A stretch of DNA of 64,000 nt from Bdellovibrionales bacterium. Its GTDB lineage: Bacteria; Bdellovibrionota; Bdellovibrionia; Bdellovibrionales; JAUICD01. The translations under genes were made by a program, and so were the position numbers. The notes under the pieces are model-generated. The model saw only the letters and a list, made by a program, of their open reading frames with translations. It was not told where the DNA came from and made no database searches. Shown piece by piece: positions 9,088 through 63,172 of this stretch. Where the stretch lies: contig CBDANC010000014.1 of assembly GCA_965197425.1 (NCBI GenBank), positions 96,001-160,000 of the forward strand. The letters run 5' to 3'. How positions within the stretch are numbered: the first letter of the stretch is position 1; the number at the start of each line of letters is the position of its first letter.

Positions 9088-9921
9088 CTAGAAATGTTCT
9101 GGAAATCTAGTTAAATCCAGGTTATGAGACGCATAATACAGTAAATCTGCTGAACATTTATCTACTTTATCTTCAAGTATCTTTATTATCTCAATCAGAT
9201 CTCTCGATTCAGTAGTCTTAAAAAAACTATTACTGTCATCAAGTGAAATAGTATTTTTTGTGCTATCCCCTCGATTCCATTTGTCAATAGCTCTACTTTC
9301 TAGTTCTTCACACTTAGTTTCATTCAAGATAAAACCCGTATATTTACTAGGGTCATCTTTAAAAAAGCTTTTCAACAACTCAATGTTTCCGTGTATGAAC
9401 ATATTTCTTATTTCATAGTATATAGAAGTATATAAACCATACTTTTGTCTCAATAATCCAACTGGTCTTAGAACTCCATAACCATCCTTAACTAAAACAG
9501 AAAAAAAGTTACTACTGTAATACTTTTTGTTGGTATTTTTATTTTTTACTTTTTCAAGCTTAATGTCGTATAGAGTATCTACAGCAACACCTATGTTGTC
9601 GTACTGGCCTCCCCAAACTGTTGCTAAGTATCCACCAACAACATTTATACGCATGTGCATAAAGTTGATATCCTGATTGTTAAATTTTATATGCCATTTC
9701 TTGTCCTCTTTTTCCATGTACGGGAGATTCTTTAAAGATTTAATCTGATTTAGTGATGATAATCGAACGCTATCAAATTTCATGGCATATTCTAGATGTT
9801 CAATTATCCTAGAAATATTACTCACAAATTCATCGTGCAAACTCTCTCCCTTGCTTCGAACCTCCACTATTTTGTTCTTGAAACTCTTTATTTCACCTTC
9901 TAAATATTTATTCATCGCCAT
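9088..9921 (-). CDS. Hypothetical protein with HEPN-type RxxxxH motif (putative RNase)
   Basis: Helical protein with YEIRNMFIHG; overlaps the end of the upstream STAND gene by 14 bp. Confidence 0.55.
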   Translation of the reverse strand: MAMNKYLEGEIKSFKNKIVEVRSKGESLHDEFVSNISRIIEHLEYAMKFDSVRLSSLNQIKSLKNLPYMEKEDKKWHIKFNNQDINFMHMRINVVGGYLATVWGGQYDNIGVAVDTLYDIKLEKVKNKNTNKKYYSSNFFSVLVKDGYGVLRPVGLLRQKYGLYTSIYYEIRNMFIHGNIELLKSFFKDDPSKYTGFILNETKCEELESRAIDKWNRGDSTKNTISLDDSNSFFKTTESRDLIEIIKILEDKVDKCSADLLYYASHNLDLTRFPEHF

Positions 9922-12900
9922 GCTCTTCTTTGTGCCAGGCTAGTTCCTGGTTCATCCTAGTTTTTGCCTCTTCAAATTTTAGGTTATAAAATTCCTTGAT
10001 AAATTGATGTTTTTCATTTTCGTATTTATGTCTAGCCCAATCTACATCTTGTTGCCATTTTAAACTAAACTCCCCGTATATACCAGACCACGACTCAATC
10101 TTTGCGTTGTTATGTAATGACCACAAAACATTATTTCTATATTTCCCTACTAAATAACCATCAAATTTTCTATAAATTGTATCTGCAATATTTCTCCATT
10201 CTTCACTGCCCTCCCCACAAAAACCTGCGTATCTAGACCAAATAGTAATGTTCTCTATAGGTTCATCATCTTTTAATTCTTTTATCTTTTTAATCACTAC
10301 TTTAGGAACATATTCATTATTCACATTAAATTTTTCAAACCATTTAGGAAGTTCATAACCCAAGAAAGTTCTACTGTTATTTAGTTCTGTCATTATCTCT
10401 TCAAAGCAACCAACAACTTCATCATCACTTCGATCTTCGTATGGAGGAGATCTAAATATTGGAAACAGGTCGATACTTATAGATATTGCATCAAAAAAAT
10501 TATCTCCGTCTTTATTAACAATTTTTAGCCGTTCGAATAGAAGTTTTTTAAAATCAAAAATATCTGGATGCCACTTATCTTGTCTTTCCACAACGATATT
10601 AAGCAGGCTGTAGTTGACCGAGTTGATGTCTCCCAAATTAGGTATTTTAGAAAACACTTCAAATATAAGCTTTAACATATTTATATACAAAGTATCAGTA
10701 ATATCACTAACCAGCAGTCTATCAATAACAGAGTTTACAATATTAGTAGAATCTTTTGATTTACTGTTTTCGATAACATTTATTAATACGTCCTTGTACT
10801 TATCAATGTATTGTTCTACACACTCTTCTGAGTTACTCAGTAGAATATTGGTTAATATATGAATAAATACAACTGTCCTTTTGACTTCATCAAATATTGC
10901 TTTTTTATCTAACAAATATTTTAATTCCAATTCTGATGTTTCACCAAGGTTTTTTTTACTTTTGCTATAAACGAAGTCCAAAAATCTTATTAGTTCTAAT
11001 TTGTTGTTCATATGTTTTGCTTCACACTCTAAATACAGCTTTTCTTTATCTTCTAACAGTTTTAGCACATCCTCTTTTTTTTCCTTCTTTCTCAAATCTT
11101 GAAGCTTTCTAGTTATTATGTTTCTAATGAAATCTCTTAATCCTTCATGGCTTGAACATATAGCGTTATTGATAAATTCTTGTATAACTTTGTCATCAAA
11201 ATTAGGTACAAAAAAGTAATCACATAAATAATCTGTACAAAAAGAAAATTTATCCCTACCAATAGTATCGATCCCGTCTAAAATATGTCTTTCTATTTTA
11301 GATGCTTTACCTCTCAATAGAGGTTCGAATCGATCATTTATTTGTTCTTCAATATTATATGGTGCAGGGTAGACACAGATGTTTGTATAAAATTTATTGC
11401 TACTAAAATTCAAAAAAATACCTTCGCATTTATCGGCAATTTTTTTTAAATCAGTATCTTTACAATATTTGCAATACCAATCCCAAATGTTTCTAGCCTC
11501 TCTAAAATCTGTTGATGTAACCCATGGTTCTTGTATTTTTTCATACAGTTTATTAAACACCTCAATATTTAATTGTCTGTAATAATCTAGGACATCTTTT
11601 GGAATTTTATCAATGCTAGGAGCATTGATAAGTTGATGTATGTCATGGACAAATTGATCAAACAGTTGTAATATAATGGTTTTGCTACCCTGCTTAGTAC
11701 CTTCGCCTAATGTGTCCCACATCTCATTGATAATATCCCTCATATGTTTGTAATTTTCTGATCTCGGATGTAAACATGTACGTTTCATAGTCAATGTCTG
11801 TTCTTTAAAAGAATATTCTGTTCTAACTATTGCTATTAGTGGTTTAATCAATTTTTGATAGAAATCAACCTTTGGATTTTCATCTTCCTTCAATCTTCCT
11901 ATATATTCCAAAGCCTGTGATTGAAAATCTCTTTGATACGATTTCAGAATATTAGGACCACCTACAATCATGGTTGATATAACAGATGATGCTGAATGAG
12001 AACCTATATAACTATTTTGTTTTTCTATTCCTAGTAGTTGTATTGCAAGATTAGTAATGTTTTTTCTGACGCCATCATCGACAGAATACCGTGCAGCTTC
12101 CAGTAACAGTTCTGGTAGTTTTTCCAGAACATCGCTTTGATTAAGCTCCCTAAACATATACTCTTCCTTAATAGGAGATAGATTACAGTTTTTTAGTACA
12201 GATTGGACTAGCTCTACTATTTTACTTGGATATGGTGCTGCAAAATGTTTTGCAATATCAACAATGCTGAATAGTTCTTTTATATTCTTAGTTGTTTCGG
12301 CTAGCTTAACAACTTCACTTACAAAGTTATAAAGAATTCTAGACTGGTTTTTAAAATTGTATTCATGGTTTTGATACCAATCAACTTTAGCTAGAGTAGT
12401 TATTACCTTCTCCAGATCTGGAACAAAATAACCATCTTTTTTAATAACATCATCCAACATATTTTCGACTAACTTACCAAAACTAGATGATTTCGAGTCA
12501 GAACCTTCACCTGCGTATACAAGTGAATTAAATATTATGTGATCTCTAATTACATCAGGTTTCATCTTTAAAAGACCACCATATCTTTTGAGAATTCTAA
12601 TATCTTCTAAAGAATTTATGTCATCGGTTATGTCATCACATTTAATTTGGTTTGCAATAAATCTCTGCTTATCCTTCCCATCGTCAGGAACAAATTTAAC
12701 ACCACTATTGTCATCAAAACTCAATGCTCCTCTATTCATATTATCAACCCTAATTTCTCCGTAAAGGGACATCCAATTTAGAACTTTTCTTGTTTTTTCT
12801 GATTTTCCTTTTAACATCTGATCTACATATTGTTTTGCAATACCAATTTCATCTCTAGGAAGATCTTCTAATCTTCCGCCTTTTTCCATTATGCTTAGTG

Positions 12901-14008
12901 CAACATGAAGGAAAATTGGGTGACCTCCAGTATATTGATTGAGATAGTTTTTGAGATCCTCTTTGGAGTATGGATAAGATTCCAAATTATTTACTTGTTC
13001 GTCTATTAGAGAATTGAAAGATTCTTTCTTCATTGGTTCTAATTTAACACGCTCAACAATCTTTTTGATTTTATAGTCTTCAAAAAAATTTATAATTTTC
13101 TGATCATACCTGCTAAGTGCAATGATAAATTTCCACTTTTTAATTCTTGAACCTGGGTTAGTAAGTTGTCCCATTAACCTTTGTAAAAATTCGATACTTT
13201 CTGGCTCATCCATTAGTATGACATGGTCTATATCTGGTGCAGCTATACCGGGAAAATCTTTGTTATATGCAAGTGTTGCCACATTTGCCCAATATACTTG
13301 TTTGCCTTCTTGTGCGTACCTGCCCTTTGATAAAGCTCTATTGCCAGCTTCTATCAAAAATCTAGACTTTCCAACTCCTCCCTCTCCCGTGACCAAAAGA
13401 ACTTTTTTATCACTACGGAAAAATGTATCTGCCTTTTCCAGTTCTTCTTCTCTTCCATGGTATTCAGATTCATATTCATCCTTATTCTCCCTGACAGAGT
13501 TGTACTCATTGAGACTAGTTATAGCATCATCAAGTGTAAGATAGGATGCAGGGCTATCTTTAAAAAAGATATTGTATATTAAAGAGTGTAATCTTATTGG
13601 TTTTTCTAACTCTTCACCACTTCGCAATTCTGCTTTTATTTTCAATTCACTAAAGAGTTGTCCTATTTGCTTGTTCCACTTGTTTTCATTATTCTTGTTG
13701 ATATATGAGTTTGTCATCAAAACCCATTTATTTACCTTCGACCAAGTATTATGATAGGGGTGAGTTTTATCATCCTTTATTTTTTTAATTTTTTTCAGTT
13801 CTTCTTTTGCATCTTTAATTAGATCTCCAGAAGATTTGTGAAACTTAAATTGATATACTGTGAGTCCATTCTCTGATATGGCATCAATTGCACCATCTTT
13901 TCCATCACTCCTATAGATTTTTATAGATTTATCTTGATAATTCAGTATGGTGCTACAGAGGCTTTCAAATGTTGGCCAGTGTTTTATTTTACTCCAATCT
14001 ATTTCCAT
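9908..14008 (-). CDS. Large STAND/NACHT-like ATPase with N-terminal PD-(D/E)xK (Mrr-like) nuclease and long helical C-terminal region; Avs-like defence protein
   Basis: FESLC...DGKDGAIDAI...YQFKFH nuclease signature, GREEEL, Walker A GEGGVGKS, Walker B VILMDEPE, GGHP (GxP) motif, about 900 aa helical tail. Confidence 0.75.
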   Translation of the reverse strand: MEIDWSKIKHWPTFESLCSTILNYQDKSIKIYRSDGKDGAIDAISENGLTVYQFKFHKSSGDLIKDAKEELKKIKKIKDDKTHPYHNTWSKVNKWVLMTNSYINKNNENKWNKQIGQLFSELKIKAELRSGEELEKPIRLHSLIYNIFFKDSPASYLTLDDAITSLNEYNSVRENKDEYESEYHGREEELEKADTFFRSDKKVLLVTGEGGVGKSRFLIEAGNRALSKGRYAQEGKQVYWANVATLAYNKDFPGIAAPDIDHVILMDEPESIEFLQRLMGQLTNPGSRIKKWKFIIALSRYDQKIINFFEDYKIKKIVERVKLEPMKKESFNSLIDEQVNNLESYPYSKEDLKNYLNQYTGGHPIFLHVALSIMEKGGRLEDLPRDEIGIAKQYVDQMLKGKSEKTRKVLNWMSLYGEIRVDNMNRGALSFDDNSGVKFVPDDGKDKQRFIANQIKCDDITDDINSLEDIRILKRYGGLLKMKPDVIRDHIIFNSLVYAGEGSDSKSSSFGKLVENMLDDVIKKDGYFVPDLEKVITTLAKVDWYQNHEYNFKNQSRILYNFVSEVVKLAETTKNIKELFSIVDIAKHFAAPYPSKIVELVQSVLKNCNLSPIKEEYMFRELNQSDVLEKLPELLLEAARYSVDDGVRKNITNLAIQLLGIEKQNSYIGSHSASSVISTMIVGGPNILKSYQRDFQSQALEYIGRLKEDENPKVDFYQKLIKPLIAIVRTEYSFKEQTLTMKRTCLHPRSENYKHMRDIINEMWDTLGEGTKQGSKTIILQLFDQFVHDIHQLINAPSIDKIPKDVLDYYRQLNIEVFNKLYEKIQEPWVTSTDFREARNIWDWYCKYCKDTDLKKIADKCEGIFLNFSSNKFYTNICVYPAPYNIEEQINDRFEPLLRGKASKIERHILDGIDTIGRDKFSFCTDYLCDYFFVPNFDDKVIQEFINNAICSSHEGLRDFIRNIITRKLQDLRKKEKKEDVLKLLEDKEKLYLECEAKHMNNKLELIRFLDFVYSKSKKNLGETSELELKYLLDKKAIFDEVKRTVVFIHILTNILLSNSEECVEQYIDKYKDVLINVIENSKSKDSTNIVNSVIDRLLVSDITDTLYINMLKLIFEVFSKIPNLGDINSVNYSLLNIVVERQDKWHPDIFDFKKLLFERLKIVNKDGDNFFDAISISIDLFPIFRSPPYEDRSDDEVVGCFEEIMTELNNSRTFLGYELPKWFEKFNVNNEYVPKVVIKKIKELKDDEPIENITIWSRYAGFCGEGSEEWRNIADTIYRKFDGYLVGKYRNNVLWSLHNNAKIESWSGIYGEFSLKWQQDVDWARHKYENEKHQFIKEFYNLKFEEAKTRMNQELAWHKEEHGDE

Positions 14009-24824: not shown

Positions 24825-24938
24825 CACATGTAGTCCTTTAGTAACGGGATCAGCATCAGTGTCCAGTACTGGGCAACAATGAGCCTAAAATAAGTGAACA
24901 AGTCCACTTGTTTTTAGCCTCATTAGGAAGACCTTTAT
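24825..24938 (-). repeat. Dispersed structured intergenic repeat (module A) between rsmH and ftsL
   Basis: Reverse complement reads ATAAAGGTCTTCCTAATGAGGCTAAAAACAAGTGGACTTGTTCACTT..., identical over this stretch to the copy at 62894. Confidence 0.9.
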
Positions 24939-28467: not shown

Positions 28468-28572
28468 TCTATTTTATATTAAATAAGATCTTAAACCACT
28501 AGACTAGTTTATTATTCTGGACCAATCAATGTTATAGATCTCGTGTGTAAATTCCTTAGCTTTAAGTCCACC

Positions 28573-28643
28573 GGGAAACAACTACTCGGCAAAAAAAGTA
28601 GGTATAGCCTTCTTATTTTTTGCCCCGTTAGGCTCACCTTTAT
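28573..28643 (-). repeat. Dispersed structured intergenic repeat upstream of lon
   Basis: CAACTACTCGGCAAAAAAAGTAGGTATAGCCTTCTTATTTTTTGCCCCGTTAGGCTCACCTTTAT matches the reverse complement of the 52396 copy. Confidence 0.8.
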
Positions 28644-36951: not shown

Positions 36952-37156
36952 CTAAATAGTACTCCCATAACACTACCCATACATCGCACACTAGCAGTTA
37001 CAACTAGCCTTAGGGTAGGATACAAATTAATCCGCACCAATACAAGCTAAATGTTGGTTATAAGGTATCAAGATGGTAGGGTCCTGAGTGGTGTTGGGAC
37101 ACTGGCTATGAAGATGAAGAAAAAGAAGGGTTTCTCTGATTTTTGAATCAGGGAAA

Positions 37157-37213
37157 TTACACCAAGACGACATAGATGCTTTTAATGAACTATACAACAT
37201 AGAAGGAGACTAA
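37157..37213 (+). pseudogene. 3' remnant of a third matrixin-lipoprotein paralog
   Basis: Encodes LHQDDIDAFNELYNIEGD*, matching the C-termini of both downstream paralogs; in-frame TGA at 37115 and no start codon. Confidence 0.85.
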
Positions 37214-37418
37214 CCATAAAAATCAAGATTATAAATACATAACCTAAAAACCAAAACACATTCTAACATTAAAGCTATTAAATTATAGGCACCCATCACA
37301 AGTGCTAATGACTAATATATAGACATATTCATAATACACACGCACCAATGTAAGTAGCATGTACAAACATGAGTTGTTTTTTTATAAATGTGTGTATTAA
37401 ATAACATATAAAAGCAAC

Positions 37419-38402
37419 ATGAAAACTATAAAAGCAAATACCATTTTATTGGCACTAACCACACTCTCTGTTGTGAGTATATCTTGCACATATATAAAAC
37501 ATATTGCTAGTTCAGATAGAGGTGTTACTTCGTACAAAGCATCAGGGTTGTCCAATGAACAGTTGGAAGGAAGCTCTATTGAAAGTGCACCTGGGGTAAT
37601 AAAAAATTGGTTAGGTGATTCAGTTTCAGATTTGGCTAATGAAAATGTAACCTGGAGTTTTCAAAGAAGCGGGCAAGATGACATTGTTATAGATGTTGAA
37701 GTTACAGACTCTGAAGCAACTAAAGGCAATACAGGCACACAAGACAATAATGACAGGCCCGATTATGTGTATAGGCCTCTACACATGCATATAGATGATA
37801 GCATTCGGGAACATAGGCTTGGGAACTATTTTGTAAATATGATACATAGATCTGCTGAAATTTGGGAAAAAAATATTGGCAAAAGACTATTTAGAATACG
37901 AAACTATAGCGGACACACACTCGAAGGAGATCTCGCAAAACATGATGGAATATCAAACATTTATTATGAGTACTTAGAAAAAGAAGAATATAGAGTCAGG
38001 CTTGGACACGTGACTAATAAAAGAATCGATACAGATATAAAATCATTGATTTTTAATTTTAAGAAAAACAAAAGAATTATTGAAGCTGATATAGTGATGA
38101 ATGGAAATAAACTTGAAGCAAACCCATTATGTTTGCAGGCAATCAGACTAACCGATGTAAATTACCTGTACTTTCTTAGTAAGGAAGACAAGTGTACAGT
38201 TGCTTACTTTATGGCAGTAATGGCACATGAACTAGGGCATGTCCTGCTGCTTGGGCATATCACAAATATTCACAGTGCTATGATGAGCCCTCAACGTGCA
38301 TCAGAGTTGCTTCATCGTATTAAGAGTTTTTTTGATAAAGAACTACTGCACCAATGCGATATAGATGCTTTTAATGAATTCTACAACGTAGAAGAAGACT
38401 AA
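37419..38402 (+). CDS. Putative lipoprotein with matrixin-like (metzincin) zinc protease domain, paralog 1
   Basis: Signal ending SISC; EADIVMN, HELGHVLLLGH and SAM Met-turn. Confidence 0.75.
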   Translation: MKTIKANTILLALTTLSVVSISCTYIKHIASSDRGVTSYKASGLSNEQLEGSSIESAPGVIKNWLGDSVSDLANENVTWSFQRSGQDDIVIDVEVTDSEATKGNTGTQDNNDRPDYVYRPLHMHIDDSIREHRLGNYFVNMIHRSAEIWEKNIGKRLFRIRNYSGHTLEGDLAKHDGISNIYYEYLEKEEYRVRLGHVTNKRIDTDIKSLIFNFKKNKRIIEADIVMNGNKLEANPLCLQAIRLTDVNYLYFLSKEDKCTVAYFMAVMAHELGHVLLLGHITNIHSAMMSPQRASELLHRIKSFFDKELLHQCDIDAFNEFYNVEED

Positions 38403-38435
38403 ATATAAAAAAATATATCATCTAAACAAAGCAAC

Positions 38436-39410
38436 ATGAAAACTATAAGAACAAATACTATTTTATTAACACTAACCACACTCTCTGTTGTGAGTATATC
38501 TTGTACATACATAAAACACATTGCTAATTCAAATAGAGGTGTTGCTTCGTACAAAGTATTAGGGTTATCCAATGAGCAGTTGGAGGGAAGTTCTATTGAG
38601 AATGCACCTGAGATAATAAAAAATTGGTTAAGTAATTCAATGTCAAATCTAGCTAATGAAAATATAGCTTGGAGTTTACGAAGGAGTGGAGAAGATAATA
38701 TTGTTATAGATGTTGAAGTTACAGATTTTGAAAAAACTAAAGACAGTACAGATACACAAGGCAACGAAGATGAGTCCGATTATGTGTACAGGCCCCTATC
38801 CATGTTTATACACAGAAGCATTCGTCAACACAGGTTGGGAAACTACTTTGTAAATATGATATACAAATCTGCAAATCTTTGGGAAAAAAATACTGGGAGA
38901 AAGCTATTTGAAATATATAACATAGAACACCCAGACATTAACACCTCTCGTTCAAAGAAGGATGGTACATCAAGCATTTACTACAAATATCCAGAAGAAG
39001 AAAGTAAGGAATATGCAAAATCTTTTTGGAGATCTAGGATAGATATAAAATCGTTGGTTTTTAATTTTAAAATCAATAAAAGAGTTATTGAAGCTGATAT
39101 AATGCTGAATGGAAACTTGCTTGAAGAACACCCAGGGTGTATAGGTGAAATTAGATCAACAGATTTAAGTTACCTTTATCCTCTTAGTAAAGAAGACAGA
39201 TGTACAATTGCCTACTTTATGGGAATAATGACACACGAATTAGGACACATCTTACTCCTTGATCATATTATAAATGCTAACAGCGCCATGGCGGATCCTA
39301 TATATGCACTAGATTTGCTTAATCGTATCAAGGATTTTTTTGATAAGAAACTACTACACCAAGACGACATAGATGCTTTTAATGAAAAACACAACATAGA
39401 AGAAGATTAA
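38436..39410 (+). CDS. Putative lipoprotein with matrixin-like zinc protease domain, paralog 2
   Basis: Closely similar N-terminus to paralog 1; HELGHILLLDH and SAM. Confidence 0.75.
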   Translation: MKTIRTNTILLTLTTLSVVSISCTYIKHIANSNRGVASYKVLGLSNEQLEGSSIENAPEIIKNWLSNSMSNLANENIAWSLRRSGEDNIVIDVEVTDFEKTKDSTDTQGNEDESDYVYRPLSMFIHRSIRQHRLGNYFVNMIYKSANLWEKNTGRKLFEIYNIEHPDINTSRSKKDGTSSIYYKYPEEESKEYAKSFWRSRIDIKSLVFNFKINKRVIEADIMLNGNLLEEHPGCIGEIRSTDLSYLYPLSKEDRCTIAYFMGIMTHELGHILLLDHIINANSAMADPIYALDLLNRIKDFFDKKLLHQDDIDAFNEKHNIEED

Positions 39411-39787
39411 ACATAAAAATTAAATCAAATGAATACATAACCTAAAAACTAGCACATGCTCTGGCTGATAAAATTTTTTATAAAGACACGACAAATTAAT
39501 AAAGCATAGAAATATTTTTTGTTTCTATTACTGTGCCTAAAGGCAAGTTACTTTCTCCAAGGTGTCAAAAAAATATCCCGACCTGTGCCAAAGGTGAGGA
39601 TTATTTTGATACAAATTGGACCTGCCGTTTAGTCATAAAGTTTATTTTTATCGACATAGAACATCAAATCTGTGGCAAAATATATATAACAAAAGGGACC
39701 CAAATATATAAGAAGCTATATATAAGAGGTAACTTATTTAAGATTTAATATTGTAGGATGACAAGAATTTTGTAAGGCGAAATAAAA

Positions 39788-40162
39788 ATGAATGTGAAGG
39801 ATGCAAACGATCTATTATCATTAGTGAAACAAAGAAATGATCTGTTTCTACAGTTTAGAAACATTAATGATAAAGAGTTAGAGCAAGTTAGGGGTGGAAA
39901 TTTTTCAAACCTAAAGCAGTTTTACGATAAAAGATCTAGTCTACTTACTAGCGTTAGCAAGTTAGACTCAATTATCAGAGCTTTTTCGAAAAAACAATCC
40001 AAACCAAAACCTGTACAAAAACATGTACGATCAGAATTAATCACTGCTTTAGATAAAAAAGAAGGTCTCATAAAAGAAATTTTAGAACAAGATCTAGAGA
40101 TTATTCACCTGGTAGATGAACACCAATTTAACCTATCTAAAAAGGAAGAAAAAGTCGCCTAA
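39788..40162 (+). CDS. Helical hypothetical protein, possibly FlgN/FliT-like flagellar chaperone
   Basis: 124-aa all-helical ORF; its TAA stop overlaps the TAAAGG end of a repeat. Confidence 0.45.
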   Translation: MNVKDANDLLSLVKQRNDLFLQFRNINDKELEQVRGGNFSNLKQFYDKRSSLLTSVSKLDSIIRAFSKKQSKPKPVQKHVRSELITALDKKEGLIKEILEQDLEIIHLVDEHQFNLSKKEEKVA

Positions 40163-40345
40163 AGGTCTTCCGAACGAGGCAAATAAGGGAAGCTTTGCTT
40201 TTTGCCGAGTGGTTGCCCAGCTCTAGACACGATGCTGATCCCAATGCTAAAGGTCTTCCCCAACACTGATTGAACATGGCAACAAGTTGGCTCTGCCAAC
40301 TTTTGCCAGGTGAATTACGTTACAACCCCAGCTACTACATGTCCT
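40160..40345 (+). repeat. Dispersed repeat cluster (modules A+B) downstream of tRNA-Ser
   Basis: Two TAAAGGTCTTCC-initiated hairpin units; the second is nearly identical to 62991-63065. Confidence 0.9.
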
Positions 40346-40539: not shown

Positions 40540-40757
40540 ATAAAGGTCCATTAGCGAAGCTAAATACATGGGTTGGCGTAACGATTGCACGAAGTGCAAG
40601 TGAAGCCAGAACATGTTTTAGCTGAGCGATTGTTTCTACCAAGGTCTTCCAAGTGAAGGCAAAAATAAGTGGACTTGTTCACTTTTTTTGCCAAACTGGT
40701 TGCCCAGCTCTGTAAGGTTTAATACGACAAGAGTCACTCAAAGGTCCATTAGCAAGG
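40540..40757 (+). repeat. Dispersed repeat cluster (modules C+A plus partial C) between serS and tRNA-Ser
   Basis: AAAGGTCCATTAGC twice and AAGGTCTTCC...AAGTGGACTTGTTCACTT...TGGTTGCCCAGCTCT. Confidence 0.88.
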
Positions 40758-40768
40758 TTAGGAGATGG

Positions 40769-47541: not shown

Positions 47542-49674
47542 TTATTTTAATATCACATTTATAAAATCAGGATCTGCCACGAAGCTTTTAATCGTACTGT
47601 TGTTATAGTCATCCAAATACTTGATGGAGTGCACTCCAGGGTTTGCATTGAATATGACAAACCCTCTTACCCTATCACTCTCGGCCTCTACAGGATTAAA
47701 TTCTTCATCAAAAAATACTGGAACACTCTTATCATTCATCAAATCTTTACTTATTTCTATATCTACATCATGGATATAACTTACTACTATTGATAAACTA
47801 GGGTAGTCAGTAATTCTGTAATAAGAAGCTAACTCCCACAGCCACTCTTTTGAAGGAACTCTAACATTGAGATCCCTATCATCTGAGTTGGTTGTAACCC
47901 TGATAGGCAAGTATCCAATGCTATGGGGCTTGATTTCTATATGAAGGGGTTCATTAGATCTAGCAAATCTAATATCTACATATCCAGAATCAGTACTCCA
48001 TACTTCATCACTACCTATGTAAGACAAATCAGAATCTAGAATATTTCCAGTTTCCCCATCAAATGTAGCAATCCATTTAGTAAGCATACTACCATCAGAA
48101 ATATTTAAACTAGTTATGTGACCTGAAACAACATCAAATACCTTCACATTTGTAGCAACTTCACCAATCCTAGCCCTTAAAAGATGTATCCCCTCAGGCA
48201 CATCATAATACGCAAAGCAGCCTGTATCTAAAGAACCAGTATTAGAATATACAAATTTCCCTTCACCGTTTAAATACAAAGGGCCTTTAGCATCACGATC
48301 TGCAAGCTCTACATGTGCACCTCTTTTGCTATTAGGAAAACATCCCCAAATAATACCACCTGCTCTAATATCAAAATTCAAAGCAGCCTCGTCTAAACTC
48401 TCCAATACGGAGGTACCGGGAACTATCATGCTATCAGTATTGTTACTAGACCAAAAAAATGTCTTCCAGTTTTCTATATTCAACAAAGATAAGAAACTAG
48501 AACCACCAGAAAGTTTTGGGATAGAATAAACACCATTTATATCTACTCTAATCTCTTCATCAAAACCCATAACACTTGCTTTGGTATTCAGTATATTGGT
48601 AGAACCATCAGCATCCATATAATAAATATTATTAGCAAAACCATTTTCCACAGGATCAATATAAATATCAAAATTTGGTGTAAGCTCACCCAACAAGTAC
48701 TCTGTATAACCAATAGATAAGTTGATATCATCTATCAACTCAGCCACCAATAAGCCATCAAAGCTATTATCTATGTCTATGGAATATGTTCCAGTATCAT
48801 TATCAATTACACCTTCGTTGATAATCTTACTACCCGACAACTGATAAACCCTAAGATCGTTAACTCCACCTAAAAAAGCCAACCCATCTTTTAGAGTAAT
48901 ATTCCCAGTCACTGTATTTGGTGTACTAGAATTTAAAATTTTTGCCCGAAGCTTTGATTGCGTACCCATTGATTTAGAGCTATCAACACTGTTCCTACCT
49001 TCCAATACCCTGTCTAACCCCCTATTAAATTCTACATTGGCCTGTCTTTCTTTAGAGCGACTAACTAGGCTAGAAAACAAAACATCTACATCTTCAGTCT
49101 TCTTATTAGCTACAGGGCTCTCACTTGGCAAACCAACCCACACTCTGTTGTTTATCCACCTTTGCTTACTTTGCCCCATGTTATCTGATACAGGCACAGT
49201 ATAATTTTGCCGTGCCAACCTCTGACGCCCACTCCAATACTTATTGGCAGTATTTTTTTGAAACTCCTTCCAATCACTCATAAACCCACTACTGACAGGA
49301 AGATTATATTTATCTTGATTTTTTGTGTTTAAAGTTAGTAGAGCGGTCTTTTTTAAATAATCTTTACCAGAGGTTAAGTGCTCTAGCATTTTATCAACAC
49401 TATCTTCAGATACATTAGCCGGTCTTACCTCTAAATCAGAATAAACATCATTAATAGCAGGAGTATGCTCATCAACTAAAAGTATTAAGGGAGGATAAGT
49501 CCTATCAATTTTTACAACTGAACCACTTTTAAAAAATTTAAAGTTATCTCTACTATCTATATTTAAATCATTTCCTGCAGAAAGAAAAAAACACAAAAAG
49601 GCTATAACAAAAAAACTATAATGTAATAGATTATACTGTGGTAGGTTTTTATAATTTAAATAAGGTCTCGACAT
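47542..49674 (-). CDS. Hypothetical exported beta-rich protein
   Basis: 710-aa ORF with N-terminal TM helix; no recognised catalytic motif. Confidence 0.65.
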   Translation of the reverse strand: MSRPYLNYKNLPQYNLLHYSFFVIAFLCFFLSAGNDLNIDSRDNFKFFKSGSVVKIDRTYPPLILLVDEHTPAINDVYSDLEVRPANVSEDSVDKMLEHLTSGKDYLKKTALLTLNTKNQDKYNLPVSSGFMSDWKEFQKNTANKYWSGRQRLARQNYTVPVSDNMGQSKQRWINNRVWVGLPSESPVANKKTEDVDVLFSSLVSRSKERQANVEFNRGLDRVLEGRNSVDSSKSMGTQSKLRAKILNSSTPNTVTGNITLKDGLAFLGGVNDLRVYQLSGSKIINEGVIDNDTGTYSIDIDNSFDGLLVAELIDDINLSIGYTEYLLGELTPNFDIYIDPVENGFANNIYYMDADGSTNILNTKASVMGFDEEIRVDINGVYSIPKLSGGSSFLSLLNIENWKTFFWSSNNTDSMIVPGTSVLESLDEAALNFDIRAGGIIWGCFPNSKRGAHVELADRDAKGPLYLNGEGKFVYSNTGSLDTGCFAYYDVPEGIHLLRARIGEVATNVKVFDVVSGHITSLNISDGSMLTKWIATFDGETGNILDSDLSYIGSDEVWSTDSGYVDIRFARSNEPLHIEIKPHSIGYLPIRVTTNSDDRDLNVRVPSKEWLWELASYYRITDYPSLSIVVSYIHDVDIEISKDLMNDKSVPVFFDEEFNPVEAESDRVRGFVIFNANPGVHSIKYLDDYNNSTIKSFVADPDFINVILK

Positions 49675-50842: not shown

Positions 50843-50913
50843 AAGGTTTTCCTCATTGTTGCCCAGCTCTACACATGTCATCAAACTCATCCCCAAAGGT
50901 CTTCTCAACACTG
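50843..50913 (+). repeat. Dispersed repeat (hairpin-deleted module A plus truncated B) upstream of tal
   Basis: AAGGTTTTCC-TCATTGTTGCCCAGCTCTACACATGTCATCAAACTCATCCCC-AAAGGTCTTCTCAACACTGA. Confidence 0.88.
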
Positions 50914-50957
50914 ACCCCTCCAACAAGGTCTAGTCTAGCACAATGCCAATCTATAAC

Positions 50958-52397: not shown

Positions 52398-52538
52398 AAA
52401 GGTCTTCCTAATGAGGCAAAAAATGAGGAGGCTCTGCCTACTTTTTTTTGCCGAATGGTTGCCCAGCTCTCTACCACGATGCCGATACCCTCCCACAAGG
52501 TCTTCCCCAGCTCTACACGTGTCATCAAACTCATCCCC
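52396..52538 (+). repeat. Dispersed repeat cluster filling the DUF938-thiI gap
   Basis: ATAAAGGTCTTCCTAATGAGGC[hairpin]GCCGAATGGTTGCCCAGCTCT...AAGGTCTTCCCCAGCTCTACACGTGTCATCAAACTCATC. Confidence 0.92.
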
Positions 52539-52541
52539 ATA

Positions 52542-53138
52542 TTACTGTTTTAAAAAATAAAGCGTACGGTTGTTAGCAGGCATTTCGTAATCTTTCTGTA
52601 AAGAGAAGTCAAAGTTTTGTATCTCATAAACAACTTTTTCAAAGTCTTTTATACTACTATGCTCATCCCTATTCCTAAGCCATAGATCAAAATTTCTGTT
52701 ACTTTCAGATGTAAATTGATTTGCGTAATTAAAAGGACCATAAATTATTATCTTTGCACCAGAACTTAACCTTTCCCCAAACTCCTTAAACAACAAACAT
52801 ACTTTTTCCCACGAAATCATATGCAAGACATTGGCACAAAAAACAGCTGTTACAGGGAGGTTAGGTAGAGGCGTTTCCCCTATGCTAAAAGTTCTAGGGC
52901 CTTGAAGGTTTTTTAACCCTGATTCAGACTTCCACATCTTAATCCCTTCGTGATTAGATTTAAAATCTGAGGTAACCCAAGTAATATCAGGCAGGTTCTG
53001 GGCAAAATACACAGCATGCTGTCCGGTACCAGATCCTATCTCAAACACAAAATCTTTTGTTTCCAAAATTTGTCTTAAAACTTCTAGTATAGGATCCTGG
53101 TTTCTCTTACACGCATCTGAGATAGGCTTCTTTTTCAT
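52542..53138 (-). CDS. DUF938 family SAM-dependent methyltransferase
   Basis: ACKRNQDPIL, EIGSGTGQH, YGPF, SNRNFD and MPANN. Confidence 0.9.
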   Translation of the reverse strand: MKKKPISDACKRNQDPILEVLRQILETKDFVFEIGSGTGQHAVYFAQNLPDITWVTSDFKSNHEGIKMWKSESGLKNLQGPRTFSIGETPLPNLPVTAVFCANVLHMISWEKVCLLFKEFGERLSSGAKIIIYGPFNYANQFTSESNRNFDLWLRNRDEHSSIKDFEKVVYEIQNFDFSLQKDYEMPANNRTLYFLKQ

Positions 53139-53370
53139 AAAGGTCTTCCCCAGCATTGATTGAGCCTAGCAAACAAACCGACTTGTTGGTTTTTTGCTAG
53201 GCGAATTACGTTTTGACACAGCCACTTAAAGTCTAAAACTAAACTAAGACTTTTTTCAATAAAGGTGAGGTTAGCGAACAGCAAATAAATCTGGCTTTGC
53301 CAGTTTTTTGCTGTGAGCACCTGTTTCACCAAGTGGTTGCCCAGATCTACACATGTCATCAAACTCATCC
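53137..53370 (+). repeat. Dispersed repeat cluster (modules B+C plus tail) upstream of DUF938
   Basis: ATAAAGGTCTTCC.., ATAAAGGTGAGG.., GTGGTTGCCCAGATCTACACATGTCATCAAACTCATCC. Confidence 0.92.
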
Positions 53371-53440
53371 ACAAAAATGATAGAACCATAGTCAAACATA
53401 AAATGGCAAATGAATTACAAAGTACAAAGCCACAACCACA

Positions 53441-62895: not shown

Positions 62896-63156
62896 AAAGG
62901 TCTTCCTAATGAGGCTAAAAACAAGTGGACTTGTTCACTTTTTTTAGCCGAATGGTTGCCCAGCTCTACACATGTCATCAAACTCATCTCATAAAGGTCT
63001 TCCACAACACTGATTGAACCTGGCAACAAGTTGGCTCTGCCGACTTTTGCCAGGTGAATTACGTTTTGACACAGCCACTTAAAATCTAAAGGCAAACCAA
63101 AACTTTTCAAAGCCTGGTGGTTGTCCAACTCTACACATGTCATTAAATTCATCTCC
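62894..63156 (+). repeat. Dispersed repeat cluster (A+tail+B+tail) between rpsK and rpsD
   Basis: Two ATAAAGGTCTTCC units and two CTCTACACATGTCAT tails. Confidence 0.93.
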
Positions 63157-63172
63157 TAAATTCTTCTATCTT

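Follow-up and report, generated by a model that had tools for sequence, protein, structure and literature searches.

The window analysed here is a 64-kb stretch of DNA (G000:C14:96001-160000) from the genome GCA_965197425.1 (G000; 1.60 Mb, 15 contigs, 99.4% complete), whose RpsD finds its best named relatives in Bdellovibrio-type genomes (62-66%). Loci are given in window positions unless a contig is named. A composite repeat locus spans 53140-53372, in a divergent gap between genes where a DUF938 gene has its start codon 2 nt away. It consists of a class P module with its tail, followed by a class G module and then by a conserved 3' block that carries a tail of its own. The gene and the parts of the locus are as follows.

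52542-53138, minus strand: DUF938 methyltransferase-like gene, with its ATG at 53138-53136, 2 nt from the head of module 1.
53140-53212, plus strand: module 1, class P, with AAGGTCTTCC head, tandem G.A TGAG/CGAA and A-tract stem, ending in GAATTACGTT.
53213-53261, plus strand: tail of module 1 and T-tract remnant of a host hairpin arm, common to 63066-63107 (family D10).
53262-53327, plus strand: module 2, class G, with AAGGTGAG head and tandem G.A CGAA/TGAG.
53328-53372, plus strand: conserved 3' block GGTTGCCCAG and tail variant 2, ending at a unit boundary (D2).

In hairpin 1, TGAG at 53161-53164 faces CGAA at 53202-53205, with a bulged C at 53174 and a C-TT-G loop at 53182-53185; in hairpin 2, CGAA at 53275-53278 faces TGAG at 53314-53317, with bulged T residues at 53286 and 53290 and a C-TTT-G loop at 53295-53299. 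These tandem G.A pairs, bulges and mini-loops had been described for both hairpins of 53140-53327 in a first-pass annotation, and they are present there; the other sites it cited for these hairpins were confirmed on inspection. Folded as DNA, both hairpins are far better than shuffled sequences (z -4.2 on the plus strand, -3.7 and -4.5 on the minus strand). By comparison with like cases, module 2 is apparently nested within the 3' arm of another unit; it has a terminator-like score on both strands. On the reverse strand, the head of module 1 reads GGGGAAG at ribosome-binding-site distance from the ATG of the DUF938 gene. Within the window, Rfam returned no match for the repeat at gathering scores, only a tRNA being matched.

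Eight loci of the family lie within the window. Those beyond the locus above are listed here, together with one site that is empty in this genome.

24840-24935, minus strand: short (class S) module between rsmH and ftsL, with full pairing where others show tandem G.A.
28570-28640, minus strand: S-type module between rmuC and lon.
40162-40330, plus strand: S module with an internal deletion and a P module, beginning on the stop codon of the ORF at 39788-40162.
40541-40760, plus strand: between a tRNA and serS, a long (class L) module with tandem G.A, a GTA/GAA 3x3 loop and a C-GAA-G triloop, followed by an S module.
49622-49626, plus strand: empty site, occupied by one full unit in a close relative's contigs from two other studies.
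50843-50925, plus strand: remnant without a hairpin, made up of head, 3' block and tail, in the gap between thiI and an aldolase gene.
52399-52540, plus strand: S module with tail and a head-tail unit that lacks the hairpin, immediately upstream of the start codon of thiI.
62897-63160, plus strand: S and P modules filling the 277-nt rpsK-rpsD gap, which measures ~5 nt in G001, the sole other genome of the genus.

The earlier proposal that the stems are closed by tandem G.A pairs holds for 8 of the 11 complete hairpins in the window and fails at 24935(-), 28640(-) and 40641(+). Elsewhere in the window, tandem paralogous genes with ~1-kb spacing occupy 37140-39440, one of them with a weak Peptidase_M10 match, and 9908-14008 (minus strand) encodes a 1366-aa protein with no G001 homologue and a weak AAA_16 match, possibly a defence NTPase.

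Across G000, the family comprises about 130 loci (132 and 129 by two counts). A unit runs from the head AAGGTCTTCC, which begins AAGG, through a variable long hairpin to the GTTG-NN-CA block GGTTGCCCAG, a tail with several variants and a short linker, and units are found single, tandem, 3'-truncated or nested in one another's arms. Fold features were counted in 112 distinct modules, with strand-symmetric scoring for bulges, loops and tandems. Tandem G.A occurs in 60 of the 95 parsed modules, but 16 are paired there instead and 19 show other arrangements (17 of 112 were unparsed). Where it occurs, the flanks are compensatory as proposed, being paired in 56 of 60 modules in 11 combinations, and strand-symmetric scoring yielded 44 tandem G.A versus 0 tandem T.C, its equivalent on the opposite strand. 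Mini-loops are closed by C-G in 106 of 112 modules, again in agreement with the annotation. The unpaired pyrimidine described in the A-tract arm fared less well: bulges do fall on the 5' arm (348 versus 13), but the base is a pyrimidine in only 112 of 207 isolated single bulges, among which the A-tract bulge was not counted apart. G.T wobbles, said to work only on the AAGG strand, outnumber A.C there by 71 to 29 at isolated sites, a strong bias in which exclusivity is not borne out.

Of the 36 long modules, 30 were parsed, and 29 of these carry a feature absent from the earlier list, a 3x3 internal loop in which each arm reads GNA; 35 of the 36 end in a C-closed R-N-A triloop. Among the 76 short modules, C-TT-G loops number 30 and T-N-Y triloops 40, and the reverse complements of the latter (GAA, AAA, ATA, AGA or GGA) are of the stable R-N-A type. 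The fold is not strictly one-stranded, as tip polarity differs between module classes; both strands may fold, or hairpin tips may have been inverted. A second element of ~66 bp, with 43 matches in G000 (e.g., C13:40450 and C15:353053), combines a small hairpin bearing tandem G.A and a GCA triloop with a longer bulged hairpin; it inserts into the T-tract arm of main units and also, in frame, into four-helix-bundle genes, adding 22 residues.

G001 (1.60 Mb, single contig, 93% complete) has 1049 reciprocal best hits with G000, the best-hit median identity being 67%. It holds 88 loci of a family that is diverged in sequence (the word AAGGTCTTCC occurs 4 times in G001 versus 145 in G000) and common in plan: an AAGG head, a long hairpin with GNA/GNA loop, a triloop, a GTTG-NN-CAAC block and a tail. 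The 73 distinct G001 units include 46 R-N-A triloops and 16 tetraloops starting with R. Covariation of the stems, proposed earlier from the window alone, was evident in the G001 family as compensatory changes in all four helices of an alignment of 29 rows (28 whole, 1 cut) picked from 76 complete units. In these rows 93.7% of cells are paired versus 82.0% when shuffled, both members have changed in 18 of 25 pairs versus 11.4, and the covariation score is 0.422 versus 0.209 (at most 0.106 when slid), each value being reached by 0 of 500 shuffles; with the structure drawn from the same 29 related rows, these figures are strong, yet not a formal test.

A covariance model built from G001 alone matched 6 places in G000 (best E 5e-8) and gave no match in 59 other genomes of the order under stricter filters, with 63 candidates scored each. 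When a G000 locus was used as a BLAST query against 40 relatives, G001 among them, no real match appeared, and only k-mers and the covariance model revealed the homology between the two genomes. The repeats of both genomes thus form one homologous, genus-wide family that has been homogenised in each species. That selection acts on the fold rather than on sequence is supported by the helix covariation and by the match of the G001-only model to G000, whereas the strict strand specificity claimed alongside it does not stand. Pattern scans returned 0 hits in a genome contig collection and 0 in metagenome contigs, and a scan for the G001-type motif returned 45 stretches, 43 of them from one Bdellovibrionales record; 88 single viral pattern matches were set aside as worse folding and chance-like. 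No account of this repeat family was found in the literature, in a search mostly limited to open papers without supplements.

Other repeats were seen in related genomes. G002 and G004 (L186-L199, L227-L235) carry a third high-copy modular hairpin family, with 49 and 76 matches, which has a side hairpin and a tail; it has a short tail word in common with the G000 family, yet shows no match to the covariance model, and several resolvase paralogs contain insertions of it at almost the same codon. G001:C1:469219-471529 holds a CRISPR-like array of 36 repeats of 36 bp with a 66-bp period.

The element is mobile, as its presence varies among close strains and among paralogs, a property that is new here and was not in the earlier annotation. 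Runs X5 and X6, from two studies and representing a relative ~96% identical, hold a whole unit at 49622/49626, where G000 is empty; the insert ends where tandem units meet, without duplication, and 2 bases differ at its left junction. Empty and filled paralog pairs in G000 supply three further sites on C12 and one on C14, where the junctions have 0-1 nt in common and AAGG is preceded by 0-6 linker-like bases. Two of these four insertions are clean and lie directly before AAGG; the other two have 2-6 linker-like bases before AAGG and a 3' end that comes correspondingly early, a pattern of circular permutation around the linker. Among the five resolved junctions there is no clear case of target duplication and the ends fall at variable points in the short linker, details of 1-2 nt being uncertain in so small a sample with paralogs 82-96% identical. 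The 5' flank in G000 has T at -2 in 71 of 101 cases and A or C at -1 in 92 of 101, while G is almost absent (1 of 101 at -1, -2 and -3 alike), and G001 shows the same trend. Target information is confined to positions -2 and -1, at ~0.6 bit each, with no fixed 4-5 nt target. Orthologues neighbouring units in both genomes number 21 against 16 expected, which is no excess. Multicopy genes at G001:C1:862855-864063 and their paralogs, which we take to be Rpn/YhgA-like genes, include one interrupted by a unit.

Folding energies were compared per strand for DNA and RNA, a check named in the first-pass annotation. With nearest-neighbour energies for DNA, the AAGG strand is favoured in 100 of 116 modules (mean -13.3 versus -12.1 kcal/mol), and RNA folding favours it in 108 of 116; the strand preference is upheld in both, so that the choice between DNA and RNA cannot be made from these energies. 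Folding as DNA is provisionally preferred, on the ground that C-closed GNA triloops are very stable in DNA (passages in PMC3201870) and C-closed R-N-A triloops are found in 35 of 36 long modules and in 46 of 73 G001 units. The statement that the AAGG strand is antisense to mRNAs applies to 6 of 8 window loci and to G000 at large (48 antisense versus 23 sense loci in co-directional gaps, p 0.004; the excess persists, at 26 versus 10, without the gene-end cases described below), but not to G001 (18 versus 28). With replichores inferred roughly from skew, the AAGG strand lies on the lagging-strand template at 49 versus 74 loci in G000 (p 0.03) and 46 versus 41 in G001.

In G000, 24 of 101 units abut a same-strand stop codon and 14 of 101 an opposite-strand ATG; the corresponding G001 figures are 20 of 56 and 0 of 56. 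Where the flank is CATA, the head reads AGGAAG on the mRNA, at a spacing suited to ribosome binding, in 9 of 11 cases, versus 18 of 90 elsewhere (p 8e-5). Such gene-end positions are read as the survival of harmless or useful insertions, the head holding a TAA stop and its reverse strand giving a ribosome-binding-like site; a clonal subfamily would yield the same pattern.

The mobilising enzyme was sought by profile among selected families in G000 and G001 (Y1 at E<=1 in G000), with controls that performed well for every family except Y2. Neither Y1_Tnp (PF01797) nor the reverse transcriptase profile RVT_1 matched anything in G000, which is 99.4% complete, in the single contig of G001 (93%) or in G002; Phage_integrase (tyrosine recombinase), IS110 and the TnpB zinc ribbon had no match in G000 or G001. 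The lack of a Y2_Tnp match in G000 and G001 is a weak blank, its control having found 1 of 14, below the cut-off. A tblastn search of both genomes with four Y1 proteins of relatives gave nothing credible, a HUH-motif scan of the 1049 shared orthologues returned housekeeping proteins only, with no plausible candidate, and no gene lies between two units in G000 and also in G001. The readers suggested earlier (TnpA, RAYT and integron integrase) are, by these profile searches, encoded in neither G000 nor G001.

Two host gene groups were considered and rejected as partners. A serine recombinase is common to G000 and G001, but it is a single syntenic gene by dcd with no flanking units; the four-helix-bundle (23S_rRNA_IVP) genes have no member in G001 and in G000 show no enrichment near units, at 4 of 20 cases versus 212 of 1419 ORFs (p 0.53). 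The latter, 97-aa genes, are multicopy in their own right (Pfam matches: 22 in G000, 14 in G002 and 19 in G004), with degenerate 7-base repeats on their flanks, and are dispersed without a transposase. G000 and G001, having no tyrosine recombinase, also have no XerC/XerD, while the three other genomes of the family have some tyrosine recombinases.

Traces of Y1 transposition exist in G000. The segment G000:C11:50951-51258 is a gene-less IS200 derivative with ends 98% and 91% identical to those of an intact IS200 of G004 (L034) and an unrelated interior. An 18-bp palindrome tagged GTAG/GTGG occurs in ~40 places (C13:11693, C13:36716 and C15:397206 among them), single or in tandem and often apparently in frame inside genes. 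The relic and the palindrome family show that Y1 activity has reached this lineage in the past. The hairpin unit has no sequence match to the local IS200 ends, and a GTAG/GTGG-type guide tag is absent from 150 G000 and 122 G001 unit starts, which begin AAGG.

Several known systems resemble the repeat in part. IS200/IS605 elements insert without target duplication, and IS608-type enzymes act on the lagging-strand template. The repeat also inserts without clear target duplication (five junctions, diverged paralogs) and is like IS200/IS605 ends in its bulged hairpin with T-rich loop on one strand, an IS200 relic being present in G000; unlike them, it has no left/right end pair, no strict target tetranucleotide and no lagging-strand-template bias. 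Integron attC sites vary in sequence and keep an imperfect single-stranded hairpin with extrahelical bases, which is paralleled by the AAC/GTT pairing of class P and by the variable sequence and kept fold of the family. An attC identity was rejected, as there is no tyrosine recombinase in G000 or G001, no cassette arrays are present and units lie in housekeeping operons.

The closest likeness is to REP/BIME/REPIN sequences, which are moved by TnpA-REP (RAYT), are extragenic, number hundreds of units, are modular, tandem or mosaic, and have bulged hairpins of species-specific sequence (passages in PMC3333891 and PMC6006769). They have variable linker junctions too, and the enzyme can be missing where the repeats abound, as in REP-rich E. 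coli strains without tnpAREP (passages in PMC3333891). The present repeat differs in having one polar head-tail unit in place of an inverted REP pair, and in its tandem G.A and GNA/GNA loops; compared with REP accompanied by RAYT, as portrayed in passages of PMC6006769, no guide tag, no RAYT gene flanked by repeats and no REPtron were found. BOX elements of Streptococcus pneumoniae are likewise modular, variable in length, intergenic, structured and mobile and may alter neighbour expression, and they have terminal inverted repeats, target duplications and a link to ISSpn2 (passages in PMC3049150). A BOX or DDE-mobilised MITE identity was rejected, since the repeat has a polar head and tail, no terminal inverted repeats and no clear duplications.

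The reading we place first, giving it about an even chance, is that of a BIME/REPIN-like non-autonomous element mobilised by an enzyme of Y1 type that has since been lost or resides off the chromosome. The unit would fold as single-stranded or cruciform DNA, be excised as a single-stranded circle and be joined into targets with a 1-3 nt preference by a Y1-type HUH enzyme that would recognise the tandem G.A, the 5'-arm bulge, the GNA/GNA loop and the mini-loop. Shape would then outlast sequence, because the enzyme reads the fold. The copy numbers in both genomes, the covarying fold, the strain-level insertion polymorphism, the nearly homology-free junctions, the weak 5' flank rule and the DNA-type C-closed GNA loops all agree with such a course, as do past Y1 exposure through IS200 ends and the published BIME model, in which specificity is for a CT dinucleotide, the linker offers several cut sites, a single-stranded circle is proposed, and units are assembled and amplified in tandem (passages in PMC3333891). 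Against it, no Y1 match exists in G000, G001 or G002 and no plausible HUH protein among the shared orthologues, so that the enzyme would have to be lost, visiting on mobile DNA or unassembled; intact, species-specific, recent copies in both genomes are hard to sustain once the enzyme is gone. No tetranucleotide could be identified as a guide that pairs with the cut site, no gene has units on both sides in both genomes, the lagging-strand template is not enriched (the G000 figure runs in the wrong direction), the loops of the short modules suit the opposite strand, and the junction evidence is five cases in diverged paralogs.

A possible, though distinctly less probable, course is the same duplication-free movement of single-stranded DNA by an enzyme outside known families, host-encoded or Pfam-divergent, that both genomes would contain. 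Searches of G000 and G001 for six mobile-enzyme families were blank, yet insertions differ between ~96% identical strains, and G002, a single contig with no Y1 or reverse transcriptase, carries the third high-copy hairpin family. No candidate has emerged from the profiles and motifs scanned, the serine recombinase and the four-helix-bundle genes having been rejected, and metagenome assemblies often miss plasmids and phages. On this less probable reading, the units would be a class of still-active, duplication-free, circularly permuted DNA elements, read by a non-canonical fold (tandem G.A, GNA/GNA zipper, GNA triloop) and moved by an enzyme other than Y1, Y2, tyrosine recombinase, IS110 or reverse transcriptase.

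We think it unlikely that no dedicated enzyme is involved and that hairpin-stalled replication, followed by template switching, microhomology repair and gene conversion, copies, nests and homogenises the units. Nested and truncated units, ragged 3' ends, short junction microhomologies, class-dependent tip polarity and the fruitless enzyme search would fit, but template switching perfects palindromes and should have removed G.A pairs, bulges and 3x3 loops, all of which both species retain; the sharp 5' head, the flank preference and whole-unit insertion at non-homologous sites are left unexplained as well. An RNA route, by which the unit would be transcribed and reverse-transcribed into new sites in trans, with the fold perhaps selected as RNA, is also improbable. 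It predicts a fixed AAGG end with ragged other ends, in keeping with the fixed 5' end and the many 3'-truncated copies, and the RNA folding preference for the AAGG strand and the antisense bias of G000 accord with it; G.U wobbles, tandem G.A, and CUUG and GNRA loops suit RNA too. Neither RVT_1 (in G000, G001 or G002) nor an Rfam match was found, triloops exceed tetraloops in G001 (46 versus 16), target duplication has no clear case and G001 lacks the antisense bias. A mainly regulatory origin, as host-selected terminators, mRNA stabilisers or ribosome-binding sites, is very improbable despite the units at stop and start codons, the AGGAAG head variant at CATA flanks and the terminator-like score of module 2, as sites are not conserved between species, units of either orientation lie within conserved operons, G.A pairs and 3x3 loops are not required of a terminator and the start-codon subset may be one clonal subfamily. 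A pure terminator role, which the first-pass annotation named as a finding that would refute it, is unlikely, and any regulatory role is best seen as a secondary effect.

The repeat is real, structured, mobile and, as far as searched, undescribed. Many bacterial genomes hold palindromic repeats without a known mover, and here such a repeat comes with strain-level mobility and a fold followed through two species. If the Y1-type enzyme proves lost or visiting, the family would be one more REP-like family, with unusual structural motifs; if an enzyme outside known families is at work, two 1.6-Mb genomes with ~1050 shared genes would provide a short candidate list for the missing mobiliser. The small, near-complete genomes make RAYT-free movement of REP-like DNA testable on a short gene list. 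In these bacteria, the element rewires the ribosome-binding sites and stop codons of core genes, rpsD and thiI among them.
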